Origin: Patescibacteria group bacterium
GTDB taxonomy: Bacteria; Patescibacteriota; Patescibacteriia; UBA9934
Reading direction: 5' to 3'
Assembly: GCA_041660165.1 (NCBI GenBank)
Contig: JBAZWW010000002.1
Location: 132,074-196,073 of the forward strand
DNA: 64,000 nt
How positions within the stretch are numbered: position 1 is the first letter of the stretch; each line of letters opens with the position of its first letter. The notes under the pieces were generated by a model. That model had not been told where the DNA came from, searched no databases, and worked only from the letters and a program-made list of their open reading frames with translations. Made by a program: the position numbers and the translations under genes. Below, piece by piece: positions 11,568 through 51,615 of the stretch.

Positions 11568-11570
11568 GCT

Positions 11571-16731: not shown

Positions 16732-16743
16732 TAATCACAAAAA

Positions 16744-16770
16744 CACGACCCGTAAGGGTCGCATTTTTGT
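16744..16770 (+). terminator. Intrinsic terminator after the permease gene
   Basis: cgacccgtaagggtcg hairpin followed by CATTTTTGT. Confidence 0.55.
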
Positions 16771-20517: not shown

Positions 20518-20606
20518 TGGCGGAGGGGGCGAGATTCGAACTCGCGGAGGCTATTAACCTCGACGGTTTTCAAGACCGTTACCTTAAACCGCTCGGTCAC
20601 CCCTCC
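20518..20606 (-). tRNA. tRNA-Ser (anticodon UGA), with long variable arm and encoded CCA
   Basis: Minus-strand fold: acceptor GGAGGGG/CCCCTCC, anticodon loop cuUGAaa, long variable arm, T-loop TTCGAAT, 3'-GCCA. Confidence 0.8.
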
Positions 20607-20674: not shown

Positions 20675-20703
20675 ATACAAAAATACGACCTTTACGGGTC
20701 GTA
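20675..20703 (-). terminator. Minus-strand intrinsic terminator downstream of tRNA-Ser(GCU)
   Basis: ACGACC-tttac-GGGTCGT stem followed by a U-tract on the minus strand. Confidence 0.45.
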
Positions 20704-20709
20704 TCTTTG

Positions 20710-20799
20710 TGGCGGAGAGGAGAGGATTCGAACCTCCGGTACCCTTTCAGGTACGCAGGTTTAGCAAACCTGTGCCTTAAGCCACTCGGCCACCTCTCC
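20710..20799 (-). tRNA. tRNA-Ser (anticodon GCU), with long variable arm and encoded CCA
   Basis: Minus-strand fold: acceptor GGAGAGG, anticodon loop ttGCTaa, long variable arm, T-loop TTCGAAT. Confidence 0.8.
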
Positions 20800-21630: not shown

Positions 21631-21707
21631 GCGCGCGTAGCTCAGCTGGATAGAGCATCAGCTTGCGGAGCTGAGGGTCGTAGGTTCAAATCCTGCCGCG
21701 CGCACCA
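21631..21707 (+). tRNA. tRNA-Arg (anticodon GCG by my hand fold, tentative), with encoded CCA
   Basis: Cloverleaf: acceptor GCGCGCG, D-arm GCTCAGCTGGATAGAGC, anticodon stem TCAGC/GCTGA with loop TTGCGGA, T-arm GTAGGTTCAAATCCTGC, 3' ACCA. Confidence 0.75.
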
Positions 21708-27552: not shown

Positions 27553-27561
27553 ATTTTGCGC

Positions 27562-29283: not shown

Positions 29284-29291
29284 AGATTTTT

Positions 29292-31343: not shown

Positions 31344-31350
31344 ATTTGTA

Positions 31351-33087
31351 TTAGAAGACCAGCGTCCCGCCGGTAAGGGGAAGCGTTTTTACGTTTAGAC
31401 TGTTGGCATTGCACTGGAGACCGGCGTCACACCAGATGAGGTCAAGCGAGCTGTAGTTGGCCGGGGAGTAGGGGATACTCGCGCTTACGGAGTCTCCTGG
31501 TTTTGCTCCTGCGGTGTCCAGCATGAGCGAATAGGTGTGGGTAGTCCCGGCGCTGACAAGGAACTCGCTATGGAGCGAAGAATCCAGGAAATTTACGTTG
31601 ATGGTGTCTACCACGGCGTTATTATCGTATCCGCAATGGTGTATTCCATCAGGCGTCATACCAAAGAGCTCCGTGGTGAAGGTGTGCCCGGTTGTGAGAT
31701 CAGTGACCGTGGCTGGCCGTCCGTTGGTGGTGAACGGTCCGCACGAATTCCATCCGCTGTTCGTGGTGTCTGTTGAGTGGATGTTGAACCTGAGATTAGT
31801 AACCGTAACATCTCCCGTTGGCGCCGCCGAAACATTAAAGCGCAGAATTTCGCTATAGCCATGGGCATCTGGTCGAGCCGGTCCAGAGGGCGAGGCGGAG
31901 CTCAGTGTAATCGTCGGGCGAGTTTTGCGCAGGATGAAGGTTCCGCTTGGTTGAAAATTACTCATGCTCGATTCCGTGACGGTAAACCCGCTCGTGGCGG
32001 CCACCGCTTGGAAGCTTCCGGGGGCAGTAAAATCCATCGTTATGCCCAATTGTCTGCCGGAATCATATGGCGTAATGACTGGCGGGGTATCAACGCCCAC
32101 GTCAATCCTGGCCGCGTTGGCTGCTCCGGTGGGCACGTACATGTCTAGGTTTGAAAACTGGAGAAAGTGGTTTGAGAACGTGCCTGTTTTTGTGACCGCG
32201 ATTCCTGATTGATTGTTATAGGTGAGGGATACAAGCTTGATAGCTGCGTCATCCCCCCAATTCTTCAGCGTGAGTTTTTTGACGGTGAAGGTCTCATTTA
32301 CGGCGGTGAGTGAAAAATCGGCCACTCGGTTATTGTTCGTGTTGCCAATGATAATATCCCCGACTGGGGAGAAGCGGTAATCGTTATCTGCGCTCAGTTT
32401 TCCGTGATCGCGGACGGTGACGGTGGTCGGACCCACAAAATTATGAAGAATATTCACGCCGGTGTCCTGTTCATTCCCAACATAAATCCGACTGCCGGGT
32501 AGGGAATTTCCTTGAGGACCAAGCGCAGTGACATAGCTTGGATCGCCAATGAGTGCAAGGGCCATGATGTATTTACCGGTGGCAGAAGAATTTGCCAGAT
32601 CACAGGAGACGGTGAATGGAGTGACGGAATTTGCCGGGAGTGAAAATCTATCACTGAAGGTGAGTATATTTCCATTTGAAATGACGGGCGCCGGGCCAGC
32701 CCAAACGGCTCCTGTACTATTATTCTTGAGGACGCATGAGGTGACAAGATCGCCCCCCGAGAGGTCATTCTCTATAGTGGCAAAATTGCCATCACTGTCA
32801 AAGAAGGCCGCGAAGGATAGTTTTTGTACGGTGATACTGGCATTTTTTGCTTGAAGCTTTATGCCAAGGATGGGCTCATTTTGTGCACCCATGATTGCGC
32901 TGTGGGCCGTGGGTTCAGGAGCGCTAGTCATGATGAGAAGCGGGTGTAGTATGGAAATCGGCCGTTTTTCTGACGCTATGACAAACCCCGCGGCCGCCGC
33001 TAGTCCGGCCAGGCCAAGGAGGGCAAGGCCGACTTTGGTTGAAGTCTGCGTTTGGGTTTTGACGGTCGTGGCTGACGAAGTTTTCAT
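31351..33087 (-). CDS. Secreted surface protein, paralog 4 of 5
   Basis: Start placed at the internal Met giving MKTSSATTVKTQTQTSTKVGLALLGLAGLAAAAGFVIA; the ORF track extends to 33180. Confidence 0.75.
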   Translation of the reverse strand: MKTSSATTVKTQTQTSTKVGLALLGLAGLAAAAGFVIASEKRPISILHPLLIMTSAPEPTAHSAIMGAQNEPILGIKLQAKNASITVQKLSFAAFFDSDGNFATIENDLSGGDLVTSCVLKNNSTGAVWAGPAPVISNGNILTFSDRFSLPANSVTPFTVSCDLANSSATGKYIMALALIGDPSYVTALGPQGNSLPGSRIYVGNEQDTGVNILHNFVGPTTVTVRDHGKLSADNDYRFSPVGDIIIGNTNNNRVADFSLTAVNETFTVKKLTLKNWGDDAAIKLVSLTYNNQSGIAVTKTGTFSNHFLQFSNLDMYVPTGAANAARIDVGVDTPPVITPYDSGRQLGITMDFTAPGSFQAVAATSGFTVTESSMSNFQPSGTFILRKTRPTITLSSASPSGPARPDAHGYSEILRFNVSAAPTGDVTVTNLRFNIHSTDTTNSGWNSCGPFTTNGRPATVTDLTTGHTFTTELFGMTPDGIHHCGYDNNAVVDTINVNFLDSSLHSEFLVSAGTTHTYSLMLDTAGAKPGDSVSASIPYSPANYSSLDLIWCDAGLQCNANSLNVKTLPLTGGTLVF

Positions 33088-33092
33088 AGATT

Positions 33093-34823
33093 TTAGAAGA
33101 CCAGCGTTCCGCCAGTGACAGGAACCGCGTACACGCCGGCGCCGTCCAGGAGGTCTTGGCCGTGAAGTGTTTCGCGCCACTGCAGGTTATGCAGAAGAGG
33201 GGAGAGATTGGCGGGGTCGGTCGGGATGCTGACGGAAATCTTGTCATCGAGTGACGAGCTGGCGCCCGTGGTGTCCACCGTCAGTGAGAAAGTGTGTGTT
33301 GTGCCTGCGGGAATGTTGTTATTAAGCAAGTTAACCAGGGCATAGACAACTGGGTCTTGTTGCCTATCATCTGGCCCGCAGCGTGTTCCGGAGTTGTCCG
33401 CTATGTACCAAGATAAAGCATTAGTTTCGACGTTTCCTGACGTTATGTCCTTAAGCTCCCACTTGGAAACATCGCCAAGTTTGTTGCCGTACGTTCCGCC
33501 CCCGCAACTTGCCCAATAGTTATTTGCATTATCGGTCGCGTTAATTTTGAACGTAAATTGCGACATGCTCACATCTCCGCCTGGATCAGCCGCTACGTTG
33601 AATCGTAATACCTCCTCGCGTCCAGGAATTGAAGCGCCAGATGGTGAGCTGGTGCTGAGAGAGACGGTGGGTTTGGTTTTGTAAAGCTTGAAGGGATTCC
33701 CGTAAAGGCTGGAGCCCATGCCTGCTTCAGTTTGCGTGTGACCAGATGTGTTGGCGACTGCGCTGAAACTTCCGGGTGTGGCAAAATCAAGCGAGGCTTC
33801 AATGGTCATGCCTGAGGTGGCACCGGTCGTGGCGTTGATGGCCGGGGCGCTGACGGAGACGTCGAGTAGCTGGGCATTAGCGGCGCCGGCTTGAATTGGC
33901 ATGGCCATGCCGGTGAATCTAGCGACGCCATTTACAAACGCCATGGAGTTTGTGCCAAGAGTTCCATCAGGGTATCTGTAGGAAAGGTAGGCGTACGCCA
34001 CGGCTTGCGCTTGGCCTGCTTGTTTGATGGTAAGTGTCCGAACGGTGTAATCCTCATTTGTGCTTGAAAGAGTGAATGAAGCAACTTTGGTTGGCCTGGT
34101 TTGATCACCGGCTACCACAATGCCAATCCACGGCGAGGTGGCGCTCATTCCTGCGCTCAGCACGCCGTAATCTTTTACGGTAACCGTGGTGGCGAGTGCG
34201 GTGTTCACGCCCGGGTCTGTTTGCCCGCCAAGGTAAATTCGACTGCCGGGAATGGAATTTCCTTGAGGACCAACCGCGGTAACATCAGCATCATTTTTGA
34301 GCGAAAAGGCGTAGATGTCTGGCGAGCTGCCGTCAGGATAGGCATCGGAAAAAGTACAACGAAGACGCATGGTTTTTCCGCTATTTGCTGGAATGTTGAG
34401 GCCAAGATTGGTAAAAGTGACGCGTCCGGAACTATCGATAATTTGTCCTTGGCCAATGAGATGGCTTGACGCGTCGTATATTCCGCACAGCGAGATGTGG
34501 TCAGCGGGGGATACGTTGTTCTCCACGCTTGCAAACGTTCCGTCAGTATCGCTAGTTGCGGTGAACACAAGGCGGTTAACCTTCATGGCGATATTTTGTG
34601 CCTGGAGCGTGAAGCCAAGAACGGGATCGAGTTCTGTTCCGCTCGTGATGACATGGGACGCAGGCTGAGGCGTCATTCTGATGATTAGCGTTGGCTGAGC
34701 GGCGGAGGCGATCACAAATCCTGCAGCCGCTGCCAGGCCGGCCAGGCCAAGGAGAGCCACGCCGACTTTGGTTGAAGTTTGCGTTTGGGTTGTTGTTTGA
34801 ACCGCTGTTGATGTTGGTTTCAT
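33093..34823 (-). CDS. Secreted surface protein, paralog 5 of 5
   Basis: N-terminus MKPTSTAVQTTTQTQTSTKVGVALLGLAGLAAAAGFVIA; C-terminus TGGTLVF. Confidence 0.8.
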   Translation of the reverse strand: MKPTSTAVQTTTQTQTSTKVGVALLGLAGLAAAAGFVIASAAQPTLIIRMTPQPASHVITSGTELDPVLGFTLQAQNIAMKVNRLVFTATSDTDGTFASVENNVSPADHISLCGIYDASSHLIGQGQIIDSSGRVTFTNLGLNIPANSGKTMRLRCTFSDAYPDGSSPDIYAFSLKNDADVTAVGPQGNSIPGSRIYLGGQTDPGVNTALATTVTVKDYGVLSAGMSATSPWIGIVVAGDQTRPTKVASFTLSSTNEDYTVRTLTIKQAGQAQAVAYAYLSYRYPDGTLGTNSMAFVNGVARFTGMAMPIQAGAANAQLLDVSVSAPAINATTGATSGMTIEASLDFATPGSFSAVANTSGHTQTEAGMGSSLYGNPFKLYKTKPTVSLSTSSPSGASIPGREEVLRFNVAADPGGDVSMSQFTFKINATDNANNYWASCGGGTYGNKLGDVSKWELKDITSGNVETNALSWYIADNSGTRCGPDDRQQDPVVYALVNLLNNNIPAGTTHTFSLTVDTTGASSSLDDKISVSIPTDPANLSPLLHNLQWRETLHGQDLLDGAGVYAVPVTGGTLVF

Positions 34824-34826
34824 AGG

Positions 34827-35822
34827 TTAGGTTTTGGCTGTTCTATTTTTGGCGGCTTCCGTGTGTGCTCGCCACTGGTTGACTACGTCCTCAACGTCTT
34901 CTTTTTGCACGGCGGGATGTTTTGTCTGTTTAGCCGCTCCGTGGACCAGACCTAAGTGTTTGCCGTGGTGTTTGTCCGAGTACTCGATAGAAACTTTGGC
35001 CGCTGCTTCATCTATCAGGTCAATCGCTTTGTCCGGCAGGAACCGCCCGCGAATATACTTGTCAGAGAGCCTGACGGCTTCTTTTAACACCTCGTCAGGA
35101 ATCGTCACCTTGTGAAACGCCTCATACTCCGGCCTGAGCGTTTGCAGCATTCGTACCGCCTGTTCAGGCTTTGGCTCATCCACGAGTACTGGTTGGAAGC
35201 GTCTGTCGAGGGCCGCATCAGTCTTGATGTACTTGGCGTACTCGTCCCAGGTGGTGGCCCCAATAATATGCAAATCGCCCCTGGCTAGGGCGGGTTTGAA
35301 GATATCCGTGACGTTCAGTGCTCCTTCCGTTCCGCTGGCCTGGACGATCATGTGAACCTCGTCAATAAACAAAATAGTTTCGCGGGATTCTTTTTCCAGC
35401 TCGGCCAAAAAGTCCTGCAGGCGTTTTTCAAGTTCTCCCCGGAACTTCGTTTCGCCGAGTACAGCTGCCAGATTAAGCGCATAGAGCGACTTATCTCTGA
35501 GCGAATCCGGCACGTTGCCATCAGCTATGCGTTGGGCGAGTCCGTGAACAATGGCCGTTTTGCCTACGCCAGGCTCGCCAATCAAGAGGGGATTGTTCTT
35601 TGATCGGCGCATCAAAATATGAATAGTCCGGTCAACTTCCGGTTCCCGTTCGCTAAAAGGATCAAGTTTTTTGTCTTTTGCCTGCTTTACTAAATCTGTA
35701 AAATAATCCTGCTTACGGCTTTTTTTGCCGGCAGTCTTGGGTTGATATTTATTCTGATAAATAATACTGCCTCCGATGATCGCTAAAACCATCGCTATGC
35801 CCCAGAGGACATTTGGATTCAT
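34827..35822 (-). CDS. Membrane-anchored AAA+ ATPase homologous to the D1 nucleotide-binding domain of ClpB/ClpC only (no N-domain, no D2)
   Basis: N-terminal TM helix [15 protein letters not shown], Walker [12 protein letters not shown], Walker B ILFIDEVH, arginine-finger region [11 protein letters not shown]. Its stop lies 3 nt from the ATG of paralog 5. Confidence 0.7.
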
Positions 35823-35870
35823 AAGCCAAGTTATTCCTGGCTATTATAACATCAAAAAATGCCCGCCTAG

Positions 35871-37232
35871 CTACTTTCCTAGCTCCTTTACATGTTTTGT
35901 ATTCTTGGGCGTCAACGATGCGGGCATGCCGAGTCTTTCGGCCTCCTTTAGGCGCCTCTCTAGGAAGGGGACTGAGCGGACTTCACCGCCCAAACCAAGC
36001 TCGCCAAGGATAATCATATCGGCAGGGAAGGTCTTTTCGTTGATCGCCGAAATGATGGCTGCGGCCACCGCTAGGTCAGCGGCGTGCTCGTCAATTTTTA
36101 TTCCGCCGACTACGTTCACATACACATCTTGATCATACACTTTGATGCCGGCGCGTTTAGAGATGATCGCGAGCAACATTTGGAGTCTCGACGCATCATA
36201 ACCGCTGGTTCGGCGAACAGGATTCGGGAAGAAGCTCTTGTCCACGAGCGCTTGGATTTCGACCAGGAATGGTCTCGAACCCGCCATGATACACGTCACG
36301 ACCGAGCCCGGCCCCGGCACCCGTTCTTTCAGAAACCTCGCCGAGGGATTTTCAACGGCGATCAGGCCCTTTTCAGTCATTTCGAAAACTCCGATCTCCT
36401 CGGTGCTCCCGAACCGGTGTTTTTCTGCTCGTAGAATTCTATAGGCCGAGTCTGGATCGCCTTCGAGTGTGAGCACGGTATCGACTAAGTGTTCGAGCGT
36501 TTTCGGTCCGGCGATAGATCCTTCCTTGGTTACTTGGCCGATAATAAGCACAGGAATCCCCGTCGATTTCGCAAATCCTATTAGTTCGGTGGTGGCCGCT
36601 CGCACGGCCGTTGGTGTCCCCGGGAACGAATCAGCCTCGGCCACCATCATCGTCTGGATTGAATCTACAATAACGATACTCGGTTTCTCTGCCTTGGCCG
36701 CTGCCACAATCGCGCCCACGTCAACCGCGTTCGAGAATAGAATGGTCGAAGGATTTATGCCGAGTCTCTCAAAGCGCATCCGTACCTGTCCCTCAGATTC
36801 CTCGCCGGAGGCGTAGTAGGACGTCACCATCCTGAGCGAGAGCGAAGGATCCGACTTTCTCTTGTGAGGGTCGGACCCCTCGGTTGCAACCTCGGGGCGG
36901 GAGGGGATCGAAGTGAAGGATGTTGCGATCTGTGCTACGAGCGTCGATTTTCCAATTCCAGGCTCGCCAGCCAGCAAGGTCACTGAGCCTGGCACAATGC
37001 CTCCGCCAAGCACTCGATCAAGTTCGGATAATCCTGTAGAAACAGGGGAGACCATGGCCCCTGTTGCGTCGCCTAGTTTGAGGGTTTGTGCGGGTTTGCT
37101 CGACGATGTTTTTTTGGATAACGAAGACAGCGCCGTGGCGCCGTCCTCCGAAAGCGTGCCCCATTTCCCGCATTCCAGGCAACGGCCGGACCATCTCAGG
37201 ACTTGCGTGTCGCAGTGTGAACAGCTGAACAT
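35871..37232 (-). CDS. radA: DNA repair protein RadA/Sms
   Basis: N-terminal C4 zinc finger CSHC...CLEC, Walker A GEPGIGKST, and a Lon-like C-terminal domain. It carries an extra ~26 aa between the Walker A helix and the GEES motif. Confidence 0.9.
   Translation of the reverse strand: MFSCSHCDTQVLRWSGRCLECGKWGTLSEDGATALSSLSKKTSSSKPAQTLKLGDATGAMVSPVSTGLSELDRVLGGGIVPGSVTLLAGEPGIGKSTLVAQIATSFTSIPSRPEVATEGSDPHKRKSDPSLSLRMVTSYYASGEESEGQVRMRFERLGINPSTILFSNAVDVGAIVAAAKAEKPSIVIVDSIQTMMVAEADSFPGTPTAVRAATTELIGFAKSTGIPVLIIGQVTKEGSIAGPKTLEHLVDTVLTLEGDPDSAYRILRAEKHRFGSTEEIGVFEMTEKGLIAVENPSARFLKERVPGPGSVVTCIMAGSRPFLVEIQALVDKSFFPNPVRRTSGYDASRLQMLLAIISKRAGIKVYDQDVYVNVVGGIKIDEHAADLAVAAAIISAINEKTFPADMIILGELGLGGEVRSVPFLERRLKEAERLGMPASLTPKNTKHVKELGK
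36828..36905. repeat. Copy C of the palindromic repeat family, inserted in frame inside radA
   Basis: ATCCTGAGCGAGAGCGAAGGATCCGAC...GTCGGACCCCTCGG matches the intergenic copies at 43880 and 49091. Its right end has diverged. Confidence 0.6.
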
Positions 37233-41574: not shown

Positions 41575-43842
41575 TTATAGCACGATGACGCTTCCTTTTT
41601 TGCTAACCTTCACCTTATAGCTCCCGTGTTTTCGGCCGATGTTTTCTAAAACCTTCTCGGCGAGTGGTCTTTCAATCTGTTCTTCAATCACTCGGCGTAG
41701 GTCTCTGGCGCCGAATTTCTTATTCACGGCTTTGGCGAGTATAGGCAGTGCTCGCGCTTCTGAAGTCAGGGCAATCCCGTGATTTTTTAGACGCTGGCCA
41801 AGCTCGGCGAGTTCTTTTTTGGCAATTTGCATCAAGTGATCCTCGTTCAACGGCCTGAAGAGACAGACCCGGTCAATGCGGTTCAGGAGCTCGGTCTTGA
41901 ACGAGTCTTCGAGGATATTGCGTACGTCGAGTTTCTCACTTTTCTCGTTTGTGAAGCCAACCGCTCCGCGTTCAAATCGTTCGCGTCCGGCGTTGCTCGT
42001 CATAATGATGATCGTGTTCCTGAAATTCACCGGCGCGCCCGTGGCATCGGTGAGGGTTCCTTCGTCGAGTATTTGGAGCAGGAGGTGATGGATTTCTCTA
42101 TGTGCCTTTTCTATTTCGTCGAACAGAATAACGGCGTGGGGTTTGGCTTTTACGGCATCGGTCAATAATGCTTGATCCCTATAACCAACGTATCCGGGAG
42201 GGGAGCCGATGAGTTTGCTGACCGTGTGCGGTTCAGCGAATTCGCTCATGTCCAGACGGATGAGCGACTTGTTGTCGCCGAATACTTCCTCGGCTACGGC
42301 CTTGGCGAGTGCAGTTTTGCCCACACCCGATGGGCCGACAAAAAGAAACGAGACGAGCGGACGTTCCGGTTTGGTGAAGCCAAGTCTGGCGCGGGTGATC
42401 GCACCAACGACTGACTCAACTGCATCATCCTGCGCTACCACACGACGGGCTAATCTCTCGCCGAGAGTTTTCAGTTCGAAGGCTCCGTGGACATTCAATC
42501 GTTCAACCGGAATGCCCGAAATTCGCGAGGCTACTTTGGCAATGAACTGCTCGTCGATCGCGGTTGTACTTGAGCTCTTGCCTGCACTGCCGGCTTCATC
42601 AAGGAGATCAATCGCCTTATCGGGAAATTTTTTGTGCGGGAAATAGCGCGCCGTGATTTCAATGATCGCTTTCAAGGCCTCGGCCGAGTACTTTACGGCA
42701 TGGTGTTTTTCATATCCACCAGCCAGGCCTTTCAAGATGACGAGCGTTTCTTCGGCGCTTGGTTCCCCTACGTTAATACTCGCGAATCTTCGAGCGAGTG
42801 CGCCGTCTTGCTCGATATGTTTTTTGTATTCCTCGCGCGTAGTGGCGCCAATGACGCGGATTTCTCCACGGGCCAGCGCGGGCTTGAAAATGTTTGAGGC
42901 ATCAAGCGCTCCACCGCCAGCACCGGCGCCCATGATGGTATGGAGCTCGTCAATAAAGAGGATTGCTTCTTTGTGTTCCTTGAGATCATCAATCACATCA
43001 AGCAAGCGCGCCTCAAAATCGCCCCGGTACATGGCGCCAGCCACAATAGACGCCATGTCTAGCATGTAAATTTTCTGGCCCTTGAGCGCCGGGGGAGCGG
43101 TGTCCTCCACAATGCGTTTCGCTAAGCCCTCAACAATGGCCGTTTTGCCAACGCCGGGATCGCCAAGCAGAAGCGGATTGTTTTTCGTTCGCCGGCAAAG
43201 AATGTGCGAGAGCCGGTCAATTTCTGCACTTCGGCCAACCAGTGCATCCGCTTTTTTCACTCGGTCAGGGGCAGTGAGTTCTACGCAGAAAAATTCAAGC
43301 GCGGTTTTTTCTTCAGCCTCATTTGCATCATGCGTCTCTCCGCAGTGCTCGCACTTTTCAACTGGCTTTGCTTCAACCTTGGCCGGTGTTTGCTTTTGAA
43401 AGGCGGCGGTTAAGTGGCGCTCAAGAAAAGCGTGCGTTACTTTATTGCCCTCAAGAAATTTGTTGATTTCCGGTTGTTTGAGCGACAGGATGCCGTAGAG
43501 CAGATGTTCGGTACCGATCATTTGATGGCCGTGCATGGAGGCGGTGAGGAGCGCTTTTTCAACTGCCCGGTGTGATTCCTGGGAGAGGTGCGGACTGATG
43601 TCTTTCGGTTCGTGTTTCTTAAGCGCCACCGCCGGCATTCCGCCCATGAACTTCATGACGGATTCGCGTTGAATCCCCGCGTGCCCAAAAACCGTTTCTG
43701 CAAAAGAACCCGGCTCCGTGGTAATGGCCCACAGCAAATGGCGGGGCGTAATGAACTGACTTTCCTCATCCAGCGCAAAAGCCAGCGCTCTAGTGAGCGA
43801 GGTTTTGAGATGTTCAGAGAATTTGTCGAATGCTTCGGACAT
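41575..43842 (-). CDS. clpC: Clp ATPase with two nucleotide-binding domains (ClpC/ClpB-family chaperone)
   Basis: Clp N-domain repeats, D1 [16 protein letters not shown]2 GPSGVGKTALAKAV, and the sensor motif GARDLRRVIE; 755 aa. Confidence 0.8.
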   Translation of the reverse strand: MSEAFDKFSEHLKTSLTRALAFALDEESQFITPRHLLWAITTEPGSFAETVFGHAGIQRESVMKFMGGMPAVALKKHEPKDISPHLSQESHRAVEKALLTASMHGHQMIGTEHLLYGILSLKQPEINKFLEGNKVTHAFLERHLTAAFQKQTPAKVEAKPVEKCEHCGETHDANEAEEKTALEFFCVELTAPDRVKKADALVGRSAEIDRLSHILCRRTKNNPLLLGDPGVGKTAIVEGLAKRIVEDTAPPALKGQKIYMLDMASIVAGAMYRGDFEARLLDVIDDLKEHKEAILFIDELHTIMGAGAGGGALDASNIFKPALARGEIRVIGATTREEYKKHIEQDGALARRFASINVGEPSAEETLVILKGLAGGYEKHHAVKYSAEALKAIIEITARYFPHKKFPDKAIDLLDEAGSAGKSSSTTAIDEQFIAKVASRISGIPVERLNVHGAFELKTLGERLARRVVAQDDAVESVVGAITRARLGFTKPERPLVSFLFVGPSGVGKTALAKAVAEEVFGDNKSLIRLDMSEFAEPHTVSKLIGSPPGYVGYRDQALLTDAVKAKPHAVILFDEIEKAHREIHHLLLQILDEGTLTDATGAPVNFRNTIIIMTSNAGRERFERGAVGFTNEKSEKLDVRNILEDSFKTELLNRIDRVCLFRPLNEDHLMQIAKKELAELGQRLKNHGIALTSEARALPILAKAVNKKFGARDLRRVIEEQIERPLAEKVLENIGRKHGSYKVKVSKKGSVIVL

Positions 43843-43879
43843 AGTGAGAGGGAAGTCAGGTTTTAGGTGTCAGGTATCA

Positions 43880-43965
43880 GGTTCCCATCCCATCCTGAGC
43901 AATAGCGAAGGATCCGCCCCTCACCGGTGAAAGTCGGACCCTTCGCATGGCTCAGGGTGGGAACC
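43880..43965. repeat. Copy A of the palindromic repeat family (intergenic, between the htpX stop and the clpC start)
   Basis: GGTTCCCATCCCATCCTGAGCAATAGCGAAGGATCCGCCCCTCACCGGTGAAAGTCGGACCCTTCGCATGGCTCAGGGTGGGAACC. The two halves are mutually reverse-complementary (terminal inverted repeats). Confidence 0.7.
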
Positions 43966-43966
43966 A

Positions 43967-44839
43967 TTAGCCTCCCATGCTTCGCAATCGTTTTATCCTC
44001 TCCTCAACCGGCGGATGAGTGGAAAAGAGTTTCGAAGCTTTTCCGGCGAATGGATTCATAATGAACAAATGGGCCGTGGCCTGATTCGCTTGTTGCATCG
44101 GGATATTCGCCTGTGAAATTTTTTCGAGGGCGGAGGCCAGCCCTTCCGGGTATCTCGTCAAAAGCGCACCGGAAGCATCGGCCAGGTATTCGTGACTGCG
44201 GGAGACAGCGAGTTTGATGAGTTGCGCGATGAGTGGCGAGAGCACGGAGAGGAGAACACCGACGAGCATGAGAACGATCATGGCGTCACCGCCCTTGCGG
44301 GATCCTCGGAATCTTGTATGCAGGAAGATGTTCGCCAGAAGCGTGAGCGCGCCAACGAGGACTACTACAAGTGTCATGACACGAATGTCGTAATTCTTCA
44401 CGTGCGACAGCTCGTGGGCCGCCACTCCTTGGAGTTCTGACTTTTCGAGAATGGCCAGGAGGCCGGTTGTGAACACTATGGCCGAATGCTCAGGATCTCG
44501 TCCCGTGGCAAAAGCGTTCGGCGAGGGGTCTTCGATAATATGCACCGTCGGCATCGGTACGCCGTCCGTGATGCAGAGATTCTCCACCAAGTTCCAAAGT
44601 TCCGGATTGTCCGCTTTCTGGATCTGTTTTGCCCCGCTTGTCGATAAAGCAATCCTCGCCGAAAGATAATAACTGATGAGCGAGTAGACGCTGGCAATCA
44701 TGGTACCAATGACAATTGAGGACCCAATGTCCAGGTCGTACGCCACTCCAAAGACAGCGCTAAAGACGACTATCACTGCACAGGCAATGAAGATAAGAAT
44801 CCACGTCTTTCGCTTATTGGCAGTGATTGCAGAGTACAT
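43967..44839 (-). CDS. htpX: Zinc metalloprotease HtpX (M48 family)
   Basis: HELSHV zinc-binding motif and multiple TM helices; 290 aa. Confidence 0.85.
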   Translation of the reverse strand: MYSAITANKRKTWILIFIACAVIVVFSAVFGVAYDLDIGSSIVIGTMIASVYSLISYYLSARIALSTSGAKQIQKADNPELWNLVENLCITDGVPMPTVHIIEDPSPNAFATGRDPEHSAIVFTTGLLAILEKSELQGVAAHELSHVKNYDIRVMTLVVVLVGALTLLANIFLHTRFRGSRKGGDAMIVLMLVGVLLSVLSPLIAQLIKLAVSRSHEYLADASGALLTRYPEGLASALEKISQANIPMQQANQATAHLFIMNPFAGKASKLFSTHPPVEERIKRLRSMGG

Positions 44840-44841
44840 GT

Positions 44842-45390
44842 TTAGAACTTCACTTCAGGCACAGCATTTGCTTCCTCAGGCGCATCATAGAAATCGTACT
44901 TCTTGAAGCCCAAGGAATTTGCAATGAGATTATTCGGGAAGACCTGGATCTTGGTGTTGAAGTCGCGGGTCTGGCCATTGTAGAACCGGCGGGAAGCCTG
45001 GATCTTGTCTTCGGTATCTACCAACTCGGTCTGAAGCTGGCGAAAGTTCTCATTCGCCTTCAAGTCCGGATAGCTTTCTGCCACGGCGAACAATGATTTG
45101 AGCGTGCCCGTGAGTTGGTTTTCAGCCTGCGCATGTTCCGCGGGCGTATTAGCTTGCATGGCTTTACTCCTAGCCTCTGTCACTTTGGTGAAGACCGAGT
45201 CTTCATGCTGGGCATAGCCCTTTACGGTGTTGACGAGGTTTGGAATGAGGTCATACCGTCGCTTCAGCTGGACCTCAATATCGCCCAGCGCTTCCTCTAC
45301 TCTATTCTTGAGTGTGATGAGTCCGTTGTAGATGAACACAAGCCAGAGAACACCGGCTATGATGACGAGCAAAAGGATGGGCATGAACAT
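44842..45390 (-). CDS. lemA: LemA-family membrane protein
   Basis: N-terminal TM helix, then the conserved NGLITLKNRVEEALGDIEVQLKRRYDLIPNLV LemA region. Confidence 0.85.
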   Translation of the reverse strand: MFMPILLLVIIAGVLWLVFIYNGLITLKNRVEEALGDIEVQLKRRYDLIPNLVNTVKGYAQHEDSVFTKVTEARSKAMQANTPAEHAQAENQLTGTLKSLFAVAESYPDLKANENFRQLQTELVDTEDKIQASRRFYNGQTRDFNTKIQVFPNNLIANSLGFKKYDFYDAPEEANAVPEVKF

Positions 45391-45481
45391 ATGCGTTGCT
45401 TCCTTAGATAAAGAGTATTACTATTAGAGTAGTTTTATTGAGCTGTGCTGTCAAAGAAAATATTCTCTTTTTCGCTAACTT

Positions 45482-46813
45482 ATGCAGATCCCCGAACATA
45501 TTTTTCACGTTAATGATGTCAGGGGCCTGCTTGGCGAAGTCACCGCAGAGGTGGCCTACCTGTCCGGCCGGGCGCTCGTCCGTAAGACTGGCGCAAAAAC
45601 CGTGGTGGTTGGCCGTGATATGCGGTCTACCAGCCCCCTTCTCCAGGAGGAAGCTATCAAGGGCGTCATGAGCCTGGGCGCAAACGTCATTGATATCGGC
45701 CTCACCTCAACCTCAATTTACAATTTTGCCACCAGCAGTTTGGGCGAGGCTGAGGCGGGCATCATGATCACCGCTTCGCATAATCCTTCAGAGTATAACG
45801 GCATCAAATTTGCGGATAGCACGGGTTTGCCCATTTCCGGCTTGGACATTCTTTCAGCCATCAAAGAAGATGATGGAAAGATAGAGGTTTTCTCAACGGT
45901 CATGAAGAGGGACGTTATTCCTGTTTACGTTGACGCGTGTATTGCGCATATGGGGCCAGCGGATGTGAAGGGCATGAAGATAGCTGTTGATTATGGGAAC
46001 GGCATGGGCGCGCTCGCGCTTCGTCCGCTCGCCCAAAAACTTGGCGTTGAGCTGACGGAGTTATATGCAGAGCCTGATGCGCGATTTCCAAATCATGACG
46101 CTAATCCCGTGAAGCGTGAGACGCTGGCGGATCTGCAAAAACTGATGAAAGAGGGCGGTTTTGCTTTTGGCGTGGCGCTTGACGGGGACGCTGACAGAAT
46201 AGGTTTCCTTGATAATTTGGGCGAGCCTCTGCGCGGAGATGAGGCGCTCGCCCTGTTTGCCGGGGATGAGCTTGAGCGCCATCCCGGCGCCACGATTATT
46301 TATCAGCCGAACCATTCGTGGGCCACGATCAAGGCCATCCAGGACCACGGCGGGCGCGGAGTGCTCCGGCCCATTGGCCGGGCCAGGGTAGTTGAAGGCA
46401 TGCGGACGGAAAAAGCGCGCTTGGGCGGGGAAGTTTCCAGTCATTTCTTTTTTATCGAGTTTGGCGGGCTCGAATCCGTTGATTTTGCTTTTTGCCGGAT
46501 GCTTGCGCTCCTGGCGAAATCTGGAAAATCACTCGTTGAGTTGGCCTCGCCAATTCGAGCGTTTGCCAATAGTTGGGAAGTGAATTTTGAGGTGGCGGAT
46601 AAAGCCAAGGCGGTGGCCAGAGTAGAGGCAAAATACGCGCCTCTCGCTACGGATACGAATCGTATGGACGGCATCCGCATGGAGTTTGGCCATGACTGGT
46701 GGTTTATTCTCAGGGCCTCAAACACTGAGCCAGTGCTTCGTTTAACCGTTGAAGCAACCTCAAAGGAATTGATGGAAAAACGGCGTGATGAGATTTCCGG
46801 GCTGTTGTTCTAG
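45482..46813 (+). CDS. Alpha-D-phosphohexomutase (phosphomannomutase / phosphoglucomutase / GlmM-like)
   Basis: Active-site loop TASHNPSEYNGIKF and a Mg-binding DGDADR motif; 443 aa. Confidence 0.8.
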   Translation: MQIPEHIFHVNDVRGLLGEVTAEVAYLSGRALVRKTGAKTVVVGRDMRSTSPLLQEEAIKGVMSLGANVIDIGLTSTSIYNFATSSLGEAEAGIMITASHNPSEYNGIKFADSTGLPISGLDILSAIKEDDGKIEVFSTVMKRDVIPVYVDACIAHMGPADVKGMKIAVDYGNGMGALALRPLAQKLGVELTELYAEPDARFPNHDANPVKRETLADLQKLMKEGGFAFGVALDGDADRIGFLDNLGEPLRGDEALALFAGDELERHPGATIIYQPNHSWATIKAIQDHGGRGVLRPIGRARVVEGMRTEKARLGGEVSSHFFFIEFGGLESVDFAFCRMLALLAKSGKSLVELASPIRAFANSWEVNFEVADKAKAVARVEAKYAPLATDTNRMDGIRMEFGHDWWFILRASNTEPVLRLTVEATSKELMEKRRDEISGLLF

Positions 46814-46839
46814 TCTGTGTTCGAGTACAATTCGCCCGT

Positions 46840-47922
46840 ATGATTTTTACGATTTTTATCTTCTTGGCTGTTCTGTCGATTTTAGTTTTGGCGCACGAAT
46901 GGGGGCATTACGCCGCCGCGCGGAAAATGGGAATCGGGATTGAGGAATTTGGCATTGGCTTTCCGCCCAGGTTATTCGGCAGGAAAAATAAAAACGGCAT
47001 GCTCTGGAGCGTGAACCTGATTCCGCTTGGCGGGTTTGTCCGCATCAAGGGTGAAAACGGAGAGCGCCGGCATGAACATGATGCGTTTGCACAGAAGAGC
47101 ATTCCGGCCAGGATTTTTGTTTTGCTGGCCGGCGTTATGATGAACCTGTTGGTAGCTTGGGTCTTGTTTAGCGCGGGTTTTGCTTTTGGCCTGCCGGCGG
47201 TGGTTGAGGATTGGACGGACAAGTCGGCGATTGTTTCAAACTTGTCTGTTGATGTTGTACAAATTGTACAAAACTCGCCCGCCTCAGTTGTCGGTCTTAA
47301 AGAAGGCGATAAAATTTTGCAGATTGACGGACAGGCATACACGGATGGCGTGTTGGCGCGTTCGGCTCTGGCTCCGCATGCAGATGGTTCGCCCATTGCC
47401 ATCACGTATGAACGGGAGGGTGTTCGCGCGCATGTGAGCGTGACGCCGGCGTATGTGGATGAGCTTGGCAAGGCGGGCGTAGGCGTAGCCTTGCTTGGCA
47501 CCGGCAATGTCCGTTACCCGCTCTACCTGGCGCCCGTCAAAGGCGCAGAAACAACTATCAGCATGACCATTCAGGTGGTTGGCGCGTTTGTGGGTTTGCT
47601 CTCTGCGCTCTTTCACCATGAAAATGTTTCGGCCAATCTTTCCGGCCCCATTGGCATTGCCACGCTCACGGGCCAGGTGGCTCGCTTGGGCTTCTTCCAT
47701 CTTCTGCAATTCACCGCCATGCTCTCTGTAAACCTTGCGGTTTTGAACGCGCTTCCGTTCCCGGCGCTGGATGGCGGGCGAGTGTTCTTTGTGCTCGTTG
47801 AGGGCATTCGCAGAAAACCCAACAGCCTCACCTTTGAGCAAACCGCCCACACCATTGGCTTTGCACTATTGATCTTGCTGGTATTGTTTGTTACATATAA
47901 GGATATTGTGAAACTGTTTTGA
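46840..47922 (+). CDS. rseP: RIP site-2 metalloprotease RseP
   Basis: HEWGH (HExxH) in the first TM, an internal PDZ domain, and NLAVLNALPFPALDGG in the last TM. Confidence 0.85.
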   Translation: MIFTIFIFLAVLSILVLAHEWGHYAAARKMGIGIEEFGIGFPPRLFGRKNKNGMLWSVNLIPLGGFVRIKGENGERRHEHDAFAQKSIPARIFVLLAGVMMNLLVAWVLFSAGFAFGLPAVVEDWTDKSAIVSNLSVDVVQIVQNSPASVVGLKEGDKILQIDGQAYTDGVLARSALAPHADGSPIAITYEREGVRAHVSVTPAYVDELGKAGVGVALLGTGNVRYPLYLAPVKGAETTISMTIQVVGAFVGLLSALFHHENVSANLSGPIGIATLTGQVARLGFFHLLQFTAMLSVNLAVLNALPFPALDGGRVFFVLVEGIRRKPNSLTFEQTAHTIGFALLILLVLFVTYKDIVKLF

Positions 47923-47999
47923 GTCGTTGGATCCTTATCCCACTCCATCCCACCCCGACGACAGGAGGGGTAGGGCGGGATGGAACATAAGAATGAACT

Positions 48000-49070
48000 A
48001 TGATAAAGAAATTGCAAGAACTAGAAACAGAATGTCTCAAAGCATTTTCGAGCATCTCAACTTCCGCCGAACTTGAGGCTTCTCGGGTCGCTTATTTGGG
48101 ACGCAAGGGTAGACTCGCAGACATCCTGGCTGATCTGCCGAAATTGTCGAACGACGAAAAGCGTTCGGCCGGCCAGAAGGCCAATGAAGTGAAGTCGGCT
48201 ATTGAGGGAGCATTTGAGGCGGCCGTGGCGCGCATTGACTCGGCCCAATCCGCCAAGCGCGCAGAAAAAGAGTGGCTGGATATTTCTCTGCCAGGTTCAG
48301 AGCCGTCAGTCGGCCATCTTCATTTGACAAGTCAAGCGATTGAGGAAATTTCGGATATTTTTTCCCGCCTTGGTTTCGTTCGCGCTCGTCACCCCGAAGT
48401 AGACTGGGATTATTATGCGTTCGAATCCTTGAACATGCCGAAGGACCATCCCGCTCGGGATGATTGGGAAACGTTTTTTGTCGAGGGTGAAAATAATCGC
48501 GTGGCCGAGGGAGAAAAAGGCAAAATCGTGCTCACTCCGCACACCAGCAACGCGCAGGTGCGGGAGATGGAAAAGGGGCAGTTGCCGATCCGCATGATCA
48601 ATATCGGTAAGTGCTACCGCCGGCAATCAACGGCCAGACATCTGACCATGTTCCATCAGTTTGAAGGATTGGTAATTGACAAAACGGCGACCGTTACAGA
48701 ACTCAAAGGGGTGTGCGATTATTTTGCGAAAGCTTTTTTTGGCGAGGGCCGGGTAACTCGTTTACGCCCCTACCATTTCCGTTTTACGGAGCCGAGTTTT
48801 GAGCTCGATGTCTCGTGCGCCGTGTGCGATGGTTCTGGTCTCGTTGCCGGGGCGAAATGCAAGCTGTGCAAAGGCGGTTGGCTTGAGCTCGGCGGAGCCG
48901 GCATGGTGCATCCAAATGTTTTGAAAGCCGGCGGACTCAATCCGAAAGAGTATCAAGGTTTCGCTTTCGGTTGGGGTGTCGAGAGAACCGCCATGATGCG
49001 TTCCGGTCTGAACATTGATGATATTCGGATCATGTATAAGAATGATCTGAGATTCCTCCAGCAATTTTAG
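48000..49070 (+). CDS. pheS: Phenylalanine--tRNA ligase alpha subunit
   Basis: Class II aaRS motifs and the FGWGVERTAMM region; 356 aa. Confidence 0.9.
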   Translation: MIKKLQELETECLKAFSSISTSAELEASRVAYLGRKGRLADILADLPKLSNDEKRSAGQKANEVKSAIEGAFEAAVARIDSAQSAKRAEKEWLDISLPGSEPSVGHLHLTSQAIEEISDIFSRLGFVRARHPEVDWDYYAFESLNMPKDHPARDDWETFFVEGENNRVAEGEKGKIVLTPHTSNAQVREMEKGQLPIRMINIGKCYRRQSTARHLTMFHQFEGLVIDKTATVTELKGVCDYFAKAFFGEGRVTRLRPYHFRFTEPSFELDVSCAVCDGSGLVAGAKCKLCKGGWLELGGAGMVHPNVLKAGGLNPKEYQGFAFGWGVERTAMMRSGLNIDDIRIMYKNDLRFLQQF

Positions 49071-49090
49071 AGTTAGAGTTTGTTTATCTC

Positions 49091-49193
49091 TATCCTGAGC
49101 GAGAGCGAAGGATCCGACTCCTCGGGCGTAGCCCTACGGGCGAGCCTCACCGGTGAAAGTCGGACTCTTCGCATGGCTCAGAGTGGGACCATT
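49091..49193. repeat. Copy B of the palindromic repeat family (intergenic between pheS and pheT), carrying an extra nested hairpin insert
   Basis: ATCCTGAGCGAGAGCGAAGGATCCGAC ... CTCACCGGTGAAAGTCGGACTCTTCGCATGGCTCAGAGTGGGACCATT. Confidence 0.7.
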
Positions 49194-49206: not shown

Positions 49207-51615
49207 ATGAACATCCTCGCCTCATATAACTGGATCTGCGAATACCTCGATACAACATTGTCGGCGGACGAATTTGCCAAGGAGCTTTCGCTGAAGTCCA
49301 TGTCCGTTGAGAAAATCGACAAGCTGGGCGATAAGTTTGACCACATGGTGGTGGGCCTCATCAAAGAAATCAAAACGCACCCAAATGCGAACAAGCTTCG
49401 TATTGCCGTGACTGATATTGGCGAGAAGACGGTTGAGATCGTGTGCGGAGGATCGAACCTCGAGGTCGGTCAACGCGTGTTCGTCGCTCTCCCCGGTGCC
49501 AAGGTGAAATGGCACGGCCAAGGCGAGGATATCATCCTCGCAGAGGCTGAAATTCGCGGAGTTAAAAGCATCGGCATGATTTGTGCGCCTGCGGAAGTGG
49601 GATTTGACAAACTGCCAGCGGGCGAGCACGAAATTTGGGATCTCTCAGCGGTTACGAACGCGAAGGCCGGTACTCCGATCGTTGAAGCGCTTGAGCTCAA
49701 CGATACAATTTTCGACATTGAAATCACTACGAACAGACCCGACTGCATGAGTATCATTGGCCTAGCCCGTGAAGGCGCCGCCGTGGTAGATGGGCGTTCC
49801 CCCTCTTTCCAAGAGGGGGCTACGGGGGAGTCTCAGGGTGGCCTCGACGTCAAACTCGAATCCTCAAAGTGCTCCCGCTACATGACGGCTACGGTGAAGA
49901 ACGTCAAAGTTGGCCCTTCGCCATGGTGGCTTCAGAAGAAACTTTTGCTCGCCGGCCACAGACCGATCAATAACATTGTTGATATTACGAATTTAGTTTT
50001 GCACGAGTACGGCCAACCGCTTCATGCATTTGACTCGGCAAAAATCCACGGCGGAAAAATTATTGTGCGCGAGGCCATGAAAGGGGAGAAGCTCAAGGCG
50101 CTGGACGGCAAAGAATACGAGTTGTCTCGTAAGAACCTGATCATCGCGGACGCAGAGGGAGCTCTCGCCGTGGCCGGTGTGATGGGCGGACTCGAGTCCG
50201 GAACGTCGAACGCGACCACGACGGTCATTTTCGAGTCAGCCACATTTGACGCCGTGTCCGTTCGCCGGACGGCAAGAGATTTGAACCTTTACTCGGACTC
50301 CCAGCTCGTTTTCGAAAAGGGTCTCTCGACCGAAGCTTTGCCGAGTGCGTTGGCACGAGCGGTCGAACTCGCAAAAGAGATTGCGGGCGGTACACTCGAC
50401 GGAGTAACTGATGCTCAGCCAAAGCCGTACAAGCATCGAACGTATAAGACCTCGACCAAAAAGATTCGCGCGCGGATCGGCGTGGAAATTTCTGACGAGG
50501 AGATCGAGAAGATTTTGTCGAAACTTGGCTTCGCACTCGAAAAGAAGGGACATGTCATCACAGCCACGGTGCCGTACTGGAGAGATCATGACATCGAGTC
50601 GGAAATTGACCTGACCGAGGAAGTTGCGCGCATTTACGGCTATCACCGCATGCCATCCCGGCTTCCCGCCATTCAACCGCCGGCCGCGGTGAATGATGTT
50701 TCGCTCTCGTGGGAGCGCTCGCTCAAACGCGCGCTGGCAGGACTTGGCTATACGGAATTTTTCGGCTTATCGCTCGTTGATGCAAAGGATCTGGAGCACT
50801 ATGGCCTTTCGCCCGTTGATGCGATCAAGCTTTTGAATCCGCTGACGGAGGATTTGAGCTACCTTCGCCCTTCGCTCATGCCGTCGCTTTTGAAGAGCAT
50901 CGAAAGAAACCAAGCAAACGTCCCCTCGGCCCGTGTTTTCGAACTCGCTCGAGTGCACATGGCGTCTGTCATCCCGAGTGACAACGAGGGATCTGCATTG
51001 CCCGACGAACGCCTGCGCCTGGTCATCGCGGAATTCGGCTACGACAGCGCAGAGTCAGCCTTCATGCATCTCAAAGGAACATTGTCAGAGCTTGGCCGGA
51101 ACACCGGCGTCAGCTTCACGCTCAAGCGCGTAGATGACGAACCGCATTATCACCCCGGTCGTTCGGCGAGTATCCATGCCACGAGTGCAGGCGCTAGCAT
51201 CATTGCCGGTTCCATGGGCGAGCTTGCCCCGGAGTTCGCGCGAGCATTCGGCCTCGCGGGTTCGGTGTTCGTGATCGATCTTGATCTCGAAGCGCTCATC
51301 CCGCATATGCGCAAGAGCCTGCGCTATGAACCCATGGGCGAGTTCCCAACCTCCCGTCGAGACCTGTCATTTGTGGTGAACGAGCGCACGGCGTATGAGG
51401 ATATTGTGACAGCTATCAAGACTCCCTTGCTCTCAGACACCGCACTCGCTGACATTTACCGCGGGGCCGGCGTAGATGACGGCAAGAAATCCCTCACGCT
51501 TTCTCTGACCTTTGGCTCTCTTGATCGCACCCTCACCGGCGAGGAAGTAGAAACGGCCATCAAGGCTATCATTGTTACCCTTGAGGGCAAATTCGGCGCA
51601 GTGTTGCGCGGGTAG
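49207..51615 (+). CDS. pheT: Phenylalanine--tRNA ligase beta subunit
   Basis: Start at MNILASYNWICEYL (canonical PheT N-terminus), followed by tRNA-binding, B3/B4, B5 and FDX-ACB domains in order. The ORF track starts 54 nt upstream. Confidence 0.9.
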   Translation: MNILASYNWICEYLDTTLSADEFAKELSLKSMSVEKIDKLGDKFDHMVVGLIKEIKTHPNANKLRIAVTDIGEKTVEIVCGGSNLEVGQRVFVALPGAKVKWHGQGEDIILAEAEIRGVKSIGMICAPAEVGFDKLPAGEHEIWDLSAVTNAKAGTPIVEALELNDTIFDIEITTNRPDCMSIIGLAREGAAVVDGRSPSFQEGATGESQGGLDVKLESSKCSRYMTATVKNVKVGPSPWWLQKKLLLAGHRPINNIVDITNLVLHEYGQPLHAFDSAKIHGGKIIVREAMKGEKLKALDGKEYELSRKNLIIADAEGALAVAGVMGGLESGTSNATTTVIFESATFDAVSVRRTARDLNLYSDSQLVFEKGLSTEALPSALARAVELAKEIAGGTLDGVTDAQPKPYKHRTYKTSTKKIRARIGVEISDEEIEKILSKLGFALEKKGHVITATVPYWRDHDIESEIDLTEEVARIYGYHRMPSRLPAIQPPAAVNDVSLSWERSLKRALAGLGYTEFFGLSLVDAKDLEHYGLSPVDAIKLLNPLTEDLSYLRPSLMPSLLKSIERNQANVPSARVFELARVHMASVIPSDNEGSALPDERLRLVIAEFGYDSAESAFMHLKGTLSELGRNTGVSFTLKRVDDEPHYHPGRSASIHATSAGASIIAGSMGELAPEFARAFGLAGSVFVIDLDLEALIPHMRKSLRYEPMGEFPTSRRDLSFVVNERTAYEDIVTAIKTPLLSDTALADIYRGAGVDDGKKSLTLSLTFGSLDRTLTGEEVETAIKAIIVTLEGKFGAVLRG

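Follow-up and report, generated by a model that had tools for sequence, protein, structure and literature searches.

The question raised by this locus is what kind of element has produced three imperfect palindromes of about 85–105 nucleotides (nt) within a 64,000-nt stretch of a Patescibacteria group bacterium (GenBank assembly GCA_041660165.1, contig JBAZWW010000002.1, positions 132,074 to 196,073), referred to here as the window, and which part of these palindromes is under constraint. With a probability of about 0.7, they are hairpin repeats of the repetitive extragenic palindromic (REP) type, belonging to a superfamily headed by CGTC or TGTC and built like the Ssn-related motifs (SRM) that flank genes of small GIY-YIG nucleases of single-stranded DNA. 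The constrained structure was a unit hairpin of about 30 nt, and each arm of a palindrome was an independent internal palindrome of this kind.

Copy A (43880–43966) was an inverted dimer of two hairpin units between htpX and a clpC-like gene, with the left unit at 43891–43917 (plus strand), the right unit at 43934–43963 (minus strand), and the spacer CCGCCCCTCACCGGTGAAAGTCGGAC in between. Copy B (approximately 49088–49193) was an inverted dimer between pheS and pheT with units at 49092–49114 (plus) and 49160–49185 (minus). Its spacer contained a nested mini-module, CTCGGGCGTAGCCCTACGGGCGAG, a 24-nt palindrome at 49121–49144 that the first-pass annotation had read as a nested hairpin insert. 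Copy C (approximately 36822–36905) was a dimer in frame within radA, with the left unit at 36828–36854 (plus) and the right unit at about 36874–36904 (minus), a variant of the form CCCC-GA-GG-TTGCAA-CC-GA-GGGG. By inspection, this right arm was diverged and retained the unit architecture (CCCC-GA-GG-loop-CC-GA-GGGG). The dimers and the mini-module were assigned to neither strand. The three copies had been placed by the first-pass annotation at 43880–43965, 49091–49193, and 36828–36905, and the 23-mer ATCCTGAGCGAGAGCGAAGGATC confirmed them, with 3 occurrences in the window at up to 3 mismatches and a match in 0 of 100 dinucleotide shuffles. A repeat search of the window recovered the left part common to copies A–C, the right part common to copies A and B, and the palindromic nature. 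Contrary to the core ascribed to all three, copy C had only its left unit in common with copies A and B, and its central spacer was inverted relative to theirs. The two halves of each copy had been taken as reverse complements, which is not exact, as the arms were 81–85% complementary. A long hairpin, claimed for every copy, was formed by copy A (RNA folds of -48 kcal/mol on one strand and -55 kcal/mol on the other, z ~ -6) and copy B (z = -3.8 and -2.7), but not significantly by copy C (z ~ -1.8 to -2.0).

The unit was characterized by scanning one genome per species (596 Gb, both strands) with the 22-nt core pattern TCCTGAGCRNNAGCGAAGGATC. At least 120 loci contained the pattern, compared with about 2 expected by chance (our own estimate, from 19.5 specified bases). 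Among the matches listed, these loci spanned more than 12 phyla, and they included Acidobacteriota, Chloroflexota, Bacillota, Bacteroidota, Cyanobacteria, Planctomycetota, Pseudomonadota, Omnitrophota, Nitrospinota, Cloacimonadota, Patescibacteria, and others. The flanks of the loci gave the anatomy of a nearly invariant unit of about 30 nt, (T/C)GTC-AT-CCT-GA-GC-GNNA-GC-GA-AGG-AT-C-T. The unit was composed of a YGTC head, a 5-bp stem opening with A-T and T-A, a tandem G.A/A.G, two further base pairs, a GNNA or GNA loop, and a C immediately past the palindrome. An inverted partner unit was usually located next to it, past a highly variable spacer. Of 230 units, 164 had a TGTCA head and 38 a CGTCA head, and GTAG never occurred as a head; past the closing T of the stem, the tail was CT in 175 units and CC in 34. 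A GNNA loop was present in 160 units and a GNA loop in 39. When 60 units were aligned, T4, C5, CTGAG, GAAG, and the post-palindrome C27 were invariant, and A6 and T7 were conserved at 90% or more. The stem had 9 positions, of which positions 6–7 were G.A/A.G and not Watson–Crick, and its outer pair was T-A in 233 of 241 units.

Covariation was counted at the stem position that the search pattern had left free. This position was occupied as ATCCT/AGGAT in 192 units, ATTCT/AGAAT in 28, and ATGCT/AGCAT in 11, with 10 non-Watson–Crick cases. Further compensated variants, ATCCC/GGGAT and ACCCC/GGGGT, were found in copies from the same lineage as the window and in a fourth unit of the window, unit D. 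The units were arranged heads outward in 66 pairs and heads inward in 10, with a median spacer of 29 nt. Heterodimers at the free stem position made up 31 of the 66, and in 26 of these 31 both units were Watson–Crick paired despite the mismatched arms. Because the units kept their Watson–Crick pairs where the arms could not pair with each other, the unit hairpin, and not the long palindrome, is the constrained structure. Folding and covariance analysis had been proposed as a check by the first-pass annotation, and these compensatory changes upheld the unit hairpin. Units fell within open reading frames in 15% of cases, as compared with 75% of random positions. A full-text literature search by sequence string returned unrelated primers only, and a plasmid BLAST search with the canonical dimer gave just four cyanobacterial plasmids with weak hits. 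Two other arrangements were observed among the loci. A viral contig of IMG/VR (L005, 6777–6845) contained two units in direct orientation in a seemingly repetitive coding region, and at locus L004 a dimer was followed by tandem GCTCAGGATGACAAATGGGC repeats.

A covariance model, R1, was built from 60 units, none of which came from the window, and was then run on the window. The left units of copies A, B, and C scored 29–31 bits (E ~1e-5), and the right units of copies A and B scored 14–16 bits. Unit D, a single canonical unit, CTGTCATCCCGAGTGACAACGAGGGATCTGC, within pheT (50966–50996, plus strand), scored 30.5 bits (E = 1.2e-5) and had a TGTCA head and compensated stems. When folded with DNA parameters, every unit of the window took exactly the unit-hairpin shape. 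Among dimers A, B, and C, the heads read TTCCCA (copy A), CTCTA, and CACCA, and the right arms had TCCCA. The heads of the window dimers are of the YCCA type (TTCCCA, TCCCA) and not GTCA. Two readings of the CUGAG...CGAAG segment as a known RNA motif were tried and rejected by inspection: a hammerhead ribozyme, for which CUGAUGA and the A15.1 position were absent, and a K-turn, for which the 3-nt bulge was absent. Neither had support in Rfam.

The association with nuclease genes was observed in relatives of the window and in other phyla. The sister genome, GCA_041659765.1, was represented by loci L128 and L130, which were syntenic with the window (RadA 81% identical; PheT of L130 73% identical). 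In L128, a single-domain GIY-YIG gene with a product of 96 aa (11335–11625) was located immediately downstream of radA, with G.A-type units on either side of it, CAGTCyTTGCGAG...GTCGAAGCAATC and, inverted, GTCATTGCGAG...CGAAGCAA. A unit-flanked GIY-YIG gene was also found beside radA in the Patescibacteria relatives L151 (3001–3273) and L148–L150. The slot of this ssn-like gene, between radA and a gene for an AAA ATPase, was conserved in relatives, and it was empty in L126, a locus of a closer relative, and in the window, where only a gap of 48 nt remained (35823–35870). A tblastn search with the L128 GIY-YIG protein was performed against loci that had been fetched by the repeat pattern alone. 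Homologues directly flanked by canonical dimers were identified in L062 (Ruminococcaceae), L072 (Acidobacteriota), L069 (Rubricoccaceae), and L014 (Alphaproteobacteria), and a fifth match, in L108, was to a UPF0213-like protein that is more distantly related. Besides the sister genomes, four other phyla thus have ssn-like genes with such units at their flanks. The protein family was very large and well conserved: it comprised 7510 hits at E < 1e-10, and its members from named metagenome-assembled genomes (MAGs; WOR-3, Elusimicrobia, relatives of Ignavibacteriota, and Cyanobacteria) were 60–70% identical. Many of the genes were located on contigs shorter than 1 kb, as is expected because they are flanked by repeats. 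Residues Y9, Y20, and E67 of the L128 protein were aligned by eye, at an offset of three residues, with Y6, Y17, and E64, which were mutated in Neisseria SsnA.

The copies were gained and lost between sister genomes. When the window was compared with the sister genome and with a closer relative (loci L126 and L129; RadA 87% and PheT 89% identical), copy A had an ortholog at the same htpX–clpC site in L128, with a compensatory change from ACCCT/AGGGT to ACTCT/AGAGT. The copies in radA (C) and between pheS and pheT (B) were present only in the window. The pheS–pheT intergenic site was without an element in L129 and L130, radA of L126 contained a degraded insert, and PheT of L129 had a degenerate version of unit D of equal length. 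Conversely, dimers between lemA and htpX and between an M50 gene and pheS were present only in the sister genome (L128/L130). Furthermore, a scan of Joint Genome Institute (JGI) metagenomes with an exact 24-mer gave 16 loci, and 9 of them, on six contigs of sample Ga0172379, contained the same dimer type. These nine copies had YCCA heads as in the window, right-unit stems that were compensated (ACTCT/AGAGT, ATCCC/GGGAT, ACCCC/GGGGT), and the common spacer CCGAC..TCAC....TGA..GTCGG in either orientation. Within the lineage, the same dimer, spacer included, thus recurs at different sites. Because the YCCA head recurs in the nine metagenome copies, it is a conserved variant and not the result of random decay. 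The family-level claim of the first-pass annotation, a REP-like or Rickettsia palindromic element (RPE)-like set of palindromes, was therefore extended, with at least 120 loci in many phyla, nine more copies of the lineage form, and the fourth unit in pheT.

Three further features of these copies were noticed. Bounded by CCGAC and GTCGG, which are short inverted repeats, the central spacer occurred both ways, ACCCTCACCGGTGAAAGT and ACTTTCAC..TGAGGGT (window 36855–36873 versus 43918–43936 and 49146–49164; also L136, L137, L144, and L145), and this alternation suggests inversion of the hairpin tip. The mini-module CTCGGGCGTAGCCCTACGGGCGAG was found at another position in the L137 copy (about 170–195) and also within the RadA insert that is degraded in L126, and it looks like an independently inserting mini-hairpin. 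The motif AGGTGTCAGGTATCAGG adjoined copy A as a partial tandem (43858–43881) and formed an inverted pair in the intergenic region between radA and the AAA ATPase gene of L126 (8020–8130); it may be a second small repeat family.

The described systems that these units resemble are the CGTC-tagged REP superfamily (Di Nocera, De Gregorio & Rocco 2013, BMC Genomics 14:522; PMC3733652) and the motifs flanking ssn genes (Chenal et al. 2025, Nat Commun 16:2388; PMC11893778). The CGTC REPs have an unpaired CGTC, TGTC, or CCTC head, stems of 8–9 bp opening with AT, loops of 4–5 nt, and tails of 3 nt (consensus CCA), and they are mostly dimers, heterodimers included, with spacers of 20–100 bp (PMC3733652). 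They are mainly extragenic, between unidirectional or convergent genes, and their intragenic copies are in frame and cluster in genes for replication and repair; the survey reported no transposase dedicated to them (PMC3733652). Neisseria dRS3 and the Rickettsia elements RPE-4 and RPE-6 belong to this superfamily, which was reported from 5 phyla (PMC3733652). The present family shares with them the unpaired YGTC head, and a stem of about 9 positions opening with A-T and T-A, and its short loop and tail come close to theirs without being identical. It also shares the inverted homodimers and heterodimers with variable spacers, the mostly extragenic location, and the in-frame copies, here in radA and pheT. 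It differs in the conserved tandem G.A/A.G of the stem, a loop of 3–4 nt (GNA/GNNA) instead of 4–5 nt, a CT or CC tail instead of CCA, the YCCA heads of the window dimers, and a core that is found in more than 12 phyla, Patescibacteria included, among the matches listed. The first 50 kb of pSymB of S. meliloti, a described host of CGTC REPs, had no R1 match, which is uninformative either way.

Ssn proteins are small single-domain GIY-YIG proteins that bind and cut single-stranded DNA beside a hairpin, but not double-stranded DNA or RNA, and in Neisseria their activity lowers transformation by DNA carrying the NTS motif (PMC11893778). This dRS3-containing motif, CGTCATTCCCGCGMAVGCGGGAATCYRG, and related SRM hairpins flank ssn genes (PMC11893778). 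The units share with them an HGTCAT head, a hairpin core, a C directly after the palindrome, and, in the relatives and other phyla but not in the window, the layout of unit, ssn gene, and unit around small single-domain GIY-YIG genes. The interior of the units, CCTGAGCG..CGAAGG, lies outside the published degenerate pattern, and unlike Ssn loci the window has no ssn gene. REPINs, the GTAG REPs of Gammaproteobacteria associated with RAYT, are likewise two inverted palindromic units that form a larger hairpin recurring as a whole, without target-site duplications. However, the head here is not GTAG, a Y1 transposase is not known for these units, and the sequence is conserved across phyla and is not genus-specific. 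Rickettsia palindromic elements resemble the window copies in being in-frame palindromes in essential genes that are translated as extra loops in a small reduced genome. RPE-1 differs, being about 100–150 nt and Rickettsia-specific, and only RPE-4 and RPE-6 have been placed in the CGTC superfamily; this likeness is one of description.

From these likenesses, a mechanism can be proposed. In single-stranded DNA, as in replication, transformation, or repair, the strand with the G.A form would adopt the unit hairpin, which would be bound, and nicked just upstream, by an Ssn-type nuclease that is cognate to it. Nicking, or recombination or template switching at the hairpins, would then spread or remove copies and modulate recombination. 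We infer both the folding in single-stranded DNA and the recognition by Ssn, and both are uncertain for the YCCA-headed copies of the window, which may be orphans. Because these dimers have YCCA instead of GTCA heads, and because ssn is missing from the conserved site adjacent to radA, they are probably orphaned or escaped copies that are largely neutral. The copies may also have a side effect at the mRNA level, and any such hairpin effect would be a by-product. The YCCA dimers could instead form a head-switched subfamily that is still moving without the radA-adjacent ssn, either as an escape variant that Ssn cannot cleave or as the substrate of an unrecognised enzyme; we consider this unlikely. 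If it were true, the recurrent invasion of the RadA loop by different palindromes would mean hairpin targeting of, or selection on, recombination proteins and not mere tolerance.

Several observations weigh against the assignment to Ssn-linked hairpin repeats. The GTC head was not present on dimers A–C, and no ssn homologue was found in the 64-kb window. The published SRM regular expression, HGTCWYN(0-2)YYVSBRHN(0-5)WNVSBRGN(0-2)RNCYNB, fitted the NTS motif but none of the canonical units, window units, or ssn-flanking units of L128, and had 0 matches in the window. The ssn-like proteins were matched in Pfam as GIY-YIG only, and the sole sequence match in the PDB was a UPF0213 GIY-YIG protein (E = 3e-6). 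The likeness to CGTC REPs was judged by features described in the text of the survey and not by consensus sequences. In addition, the long hairpin is favoured on energy alone, since the dimer fold of copy A reached z ~ -6, whereas single units, folded with nearest-neighbour parameters for DNA, had energies no better than those of shuffles (z = -0.03 to -1.5). It is therefore covariation and not thermodynamics that argues for the unit hairpin.

A different reading is that the repeats are primarily RNA elements, in which the transcribed hairpin was selected because it ends transcription, stabilises mRNA, marks a processing site, or yields a small RNA. Di Nocera et al. argued for action at the RNA level for many REPs (PMC3733652), while Neisseria SsnA does not bind RNA (PMC11893778). 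The strong RNA fold of copy A on both strands is in keeping with such a role, as are the tandem G.A pairs and GNRA-like loops, which are classic RNA motifs, and the location of copies A and B just past a stop codon with co-directional genes on both sides. However, no Rfam family was found: only three tRNAs in the window reached the gathering score, nothing relevant was matched at the copies even at E up to 10, and the sub-threshold matches there were chance, generic miRNA-like hairpin hits. No copy was followed by a T-run, and a terminator scan of the window found no terminator-like site at the copies. Moreover, termination at copy B, between pheS and pheT of one enzyme, would be harmful; pheS and pheT are usually co-transcribed. 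The in-frame copies within radA and pheT and the gain and loss of dimers between close relatives with unchanged gene order also argue against an RNA role. We therefore judge such a role to be improbable, and neither the terminator nor the small-RNA family offered by the first-pass annotation was borne out.

That annotation had also proposed a mobile transposable element of the miniature inverted-repeat type (MITE), bearing terminal inverted repeats. A non-autonomous transposon of the classical kind, whether a MITE with DDE-type insertion-sequence ends or a REPIN of the GTAG type moved by a RAYT (Y1) transposase, would account for the inverted arms of elements of 85–105 nt in several dispersed copies, and for their presence or absence between sister genomes. 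The spacer conserved within the lineage also suggests that the dimer is the copied unit. Across phyla, however, the spacers were highly variable and the arms themselves were conserved palindromes with their own covariation. The head was YGTC or YCCA and never GTAG, and the gene adjoining the units encoded a GIY-YIG nuclease; in the published survey, no transposase was tied to CGTC REPs (PMC3733652). By inspection, no direct repeats flanked copies A, B, or C, so that the suggested check for target-site duplications saw none. The units were seen with neither a Y1 (RAYT) transposase nor an insertion sequence whose ends match, although no exhaustive search for such insertion sequences was made and Y1 and DDE transposases were not screened systematically in the window and the fetched loci. 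A classical transposon is hence unlikely. Lastly, the first-pass annotation had allowed that only these three copies might exist or that the similarity might be limited to a short simple motif. The copy number in the window is indeed modest, but the absence of a match in 100 shuffles, the E-values of about 1e-5 for four units under R1, and the at least 120 genomic loci against about 2 expected have already refuted chance or low complexity, which retains a negligible probability. The Ssn-linked hairpin repeat therefore remains the preferred reading.

Most copies of the family are intergenic, and a minority are translated and form additional loops on protein surfaces, in the present case those of RadA and PheT. 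The first-pass annotation had two intergenic copies and one intragenic copy, as observed, but none lay between convergent genes; both intergenic copies had co-directional neighbours and were located directly after a stop codon. The stop codon of htpX (M48 peptidase; 43967–44839, minus strand), at 43967–43969, directly abutted copy A. The clpC/clpB-like ATPase gene (41575–43842, minus) started at 43842, 37 nt beyond copy A, which was upstream of it. Copy B began about 18 nt after the stop codon (49070) of pheS (48000–49070, plus) and was just upstream of the ATG (49207) of pheT (49207–51615, plus), the host gene of unit D. Unit D encoded SVIPSDNEGS, and its site in PheT was a clade-specific extra loop of 5–7 residues.

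Copy C was located in radA/sms (35871–37232, minus) and added about 30 residues to RadA (...IPSRPEVATEGSDPHKRKSDPSLSLRMV...). RadA homologues of 81–82% identity had no insert, and the site read VAQIAGFQSAYYASGEES. The insert site was between the helix following Walker A and the next strand, and was empty in the nearest insert-free homologues. In a structure model, residues 109–135 formed an unstructured loop with a predicted local distance difference test (pLDDT) score below 50, between the helix of residues 95–107 and the strand of residues 138–142. The model was of low confidence overall (mean pLDDT 62) and was used only for the predicted lack of structure of the insert. The RadA loop after the Walker A helix (residues ~104–137, window 36822–36920) was an insertion hotspot across Patescibacteria. 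Unrelated inserts were observed in many other members, such as PPPYEGGGRGEV and GGEGKGS...PPFQGGEGGG, and these resemble translated copies of palindromic repeats from other families. The public radA call on the source contig (L001, 17785–18969) was 394 aa long and started 59 codons downstream of the start of the 453-aa open reading frame (ORF), and it left out the N-terminal zinc-ribbon that was present in this ORF and in homologues.

Other features of the window were as follows. Downstream of the AAA ATPase gene (34827–35822), a tandem array of five paralogous genes, each about 1.72 kb long, was located at 26500–35000 on the minus strand. Their products of about 575 aa had no Pfam hit in the syntenic loci. 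A hairpin-containing sequence of 35 nt, CACAAAAACACGACCCGTAAGGGTCGCATTTTTGT, probably of terminator-like nature, occurred twice in inverted orientation (16736–16770 and 20677–20711), with one copy adjoining a tRNA gene. The tRNA genes were at 20521–20606 and 20713–20799 on the minus strand and 21631–21704 on the plus strand.

With these results, the described class of hairpin repeats that comprises the CGTC REPs and Ssn-related motifs reaches into the candidate phyla radiation. A single, almost unvarying unit was common to more than 12 phyla, together with Ssn-like nucleases that were 60–70% identical across phyla, and the tandem G.A stem points to a subtype that the published search pattern misses. 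In practice, such repeats yield spurious small ORFs, broken assemblies, and inflated apparent protein insertions in MAGs. The copies in RadA and PheT are clear natural examples of repeats that are translated within the proteins of a genome of about 1 Mb.

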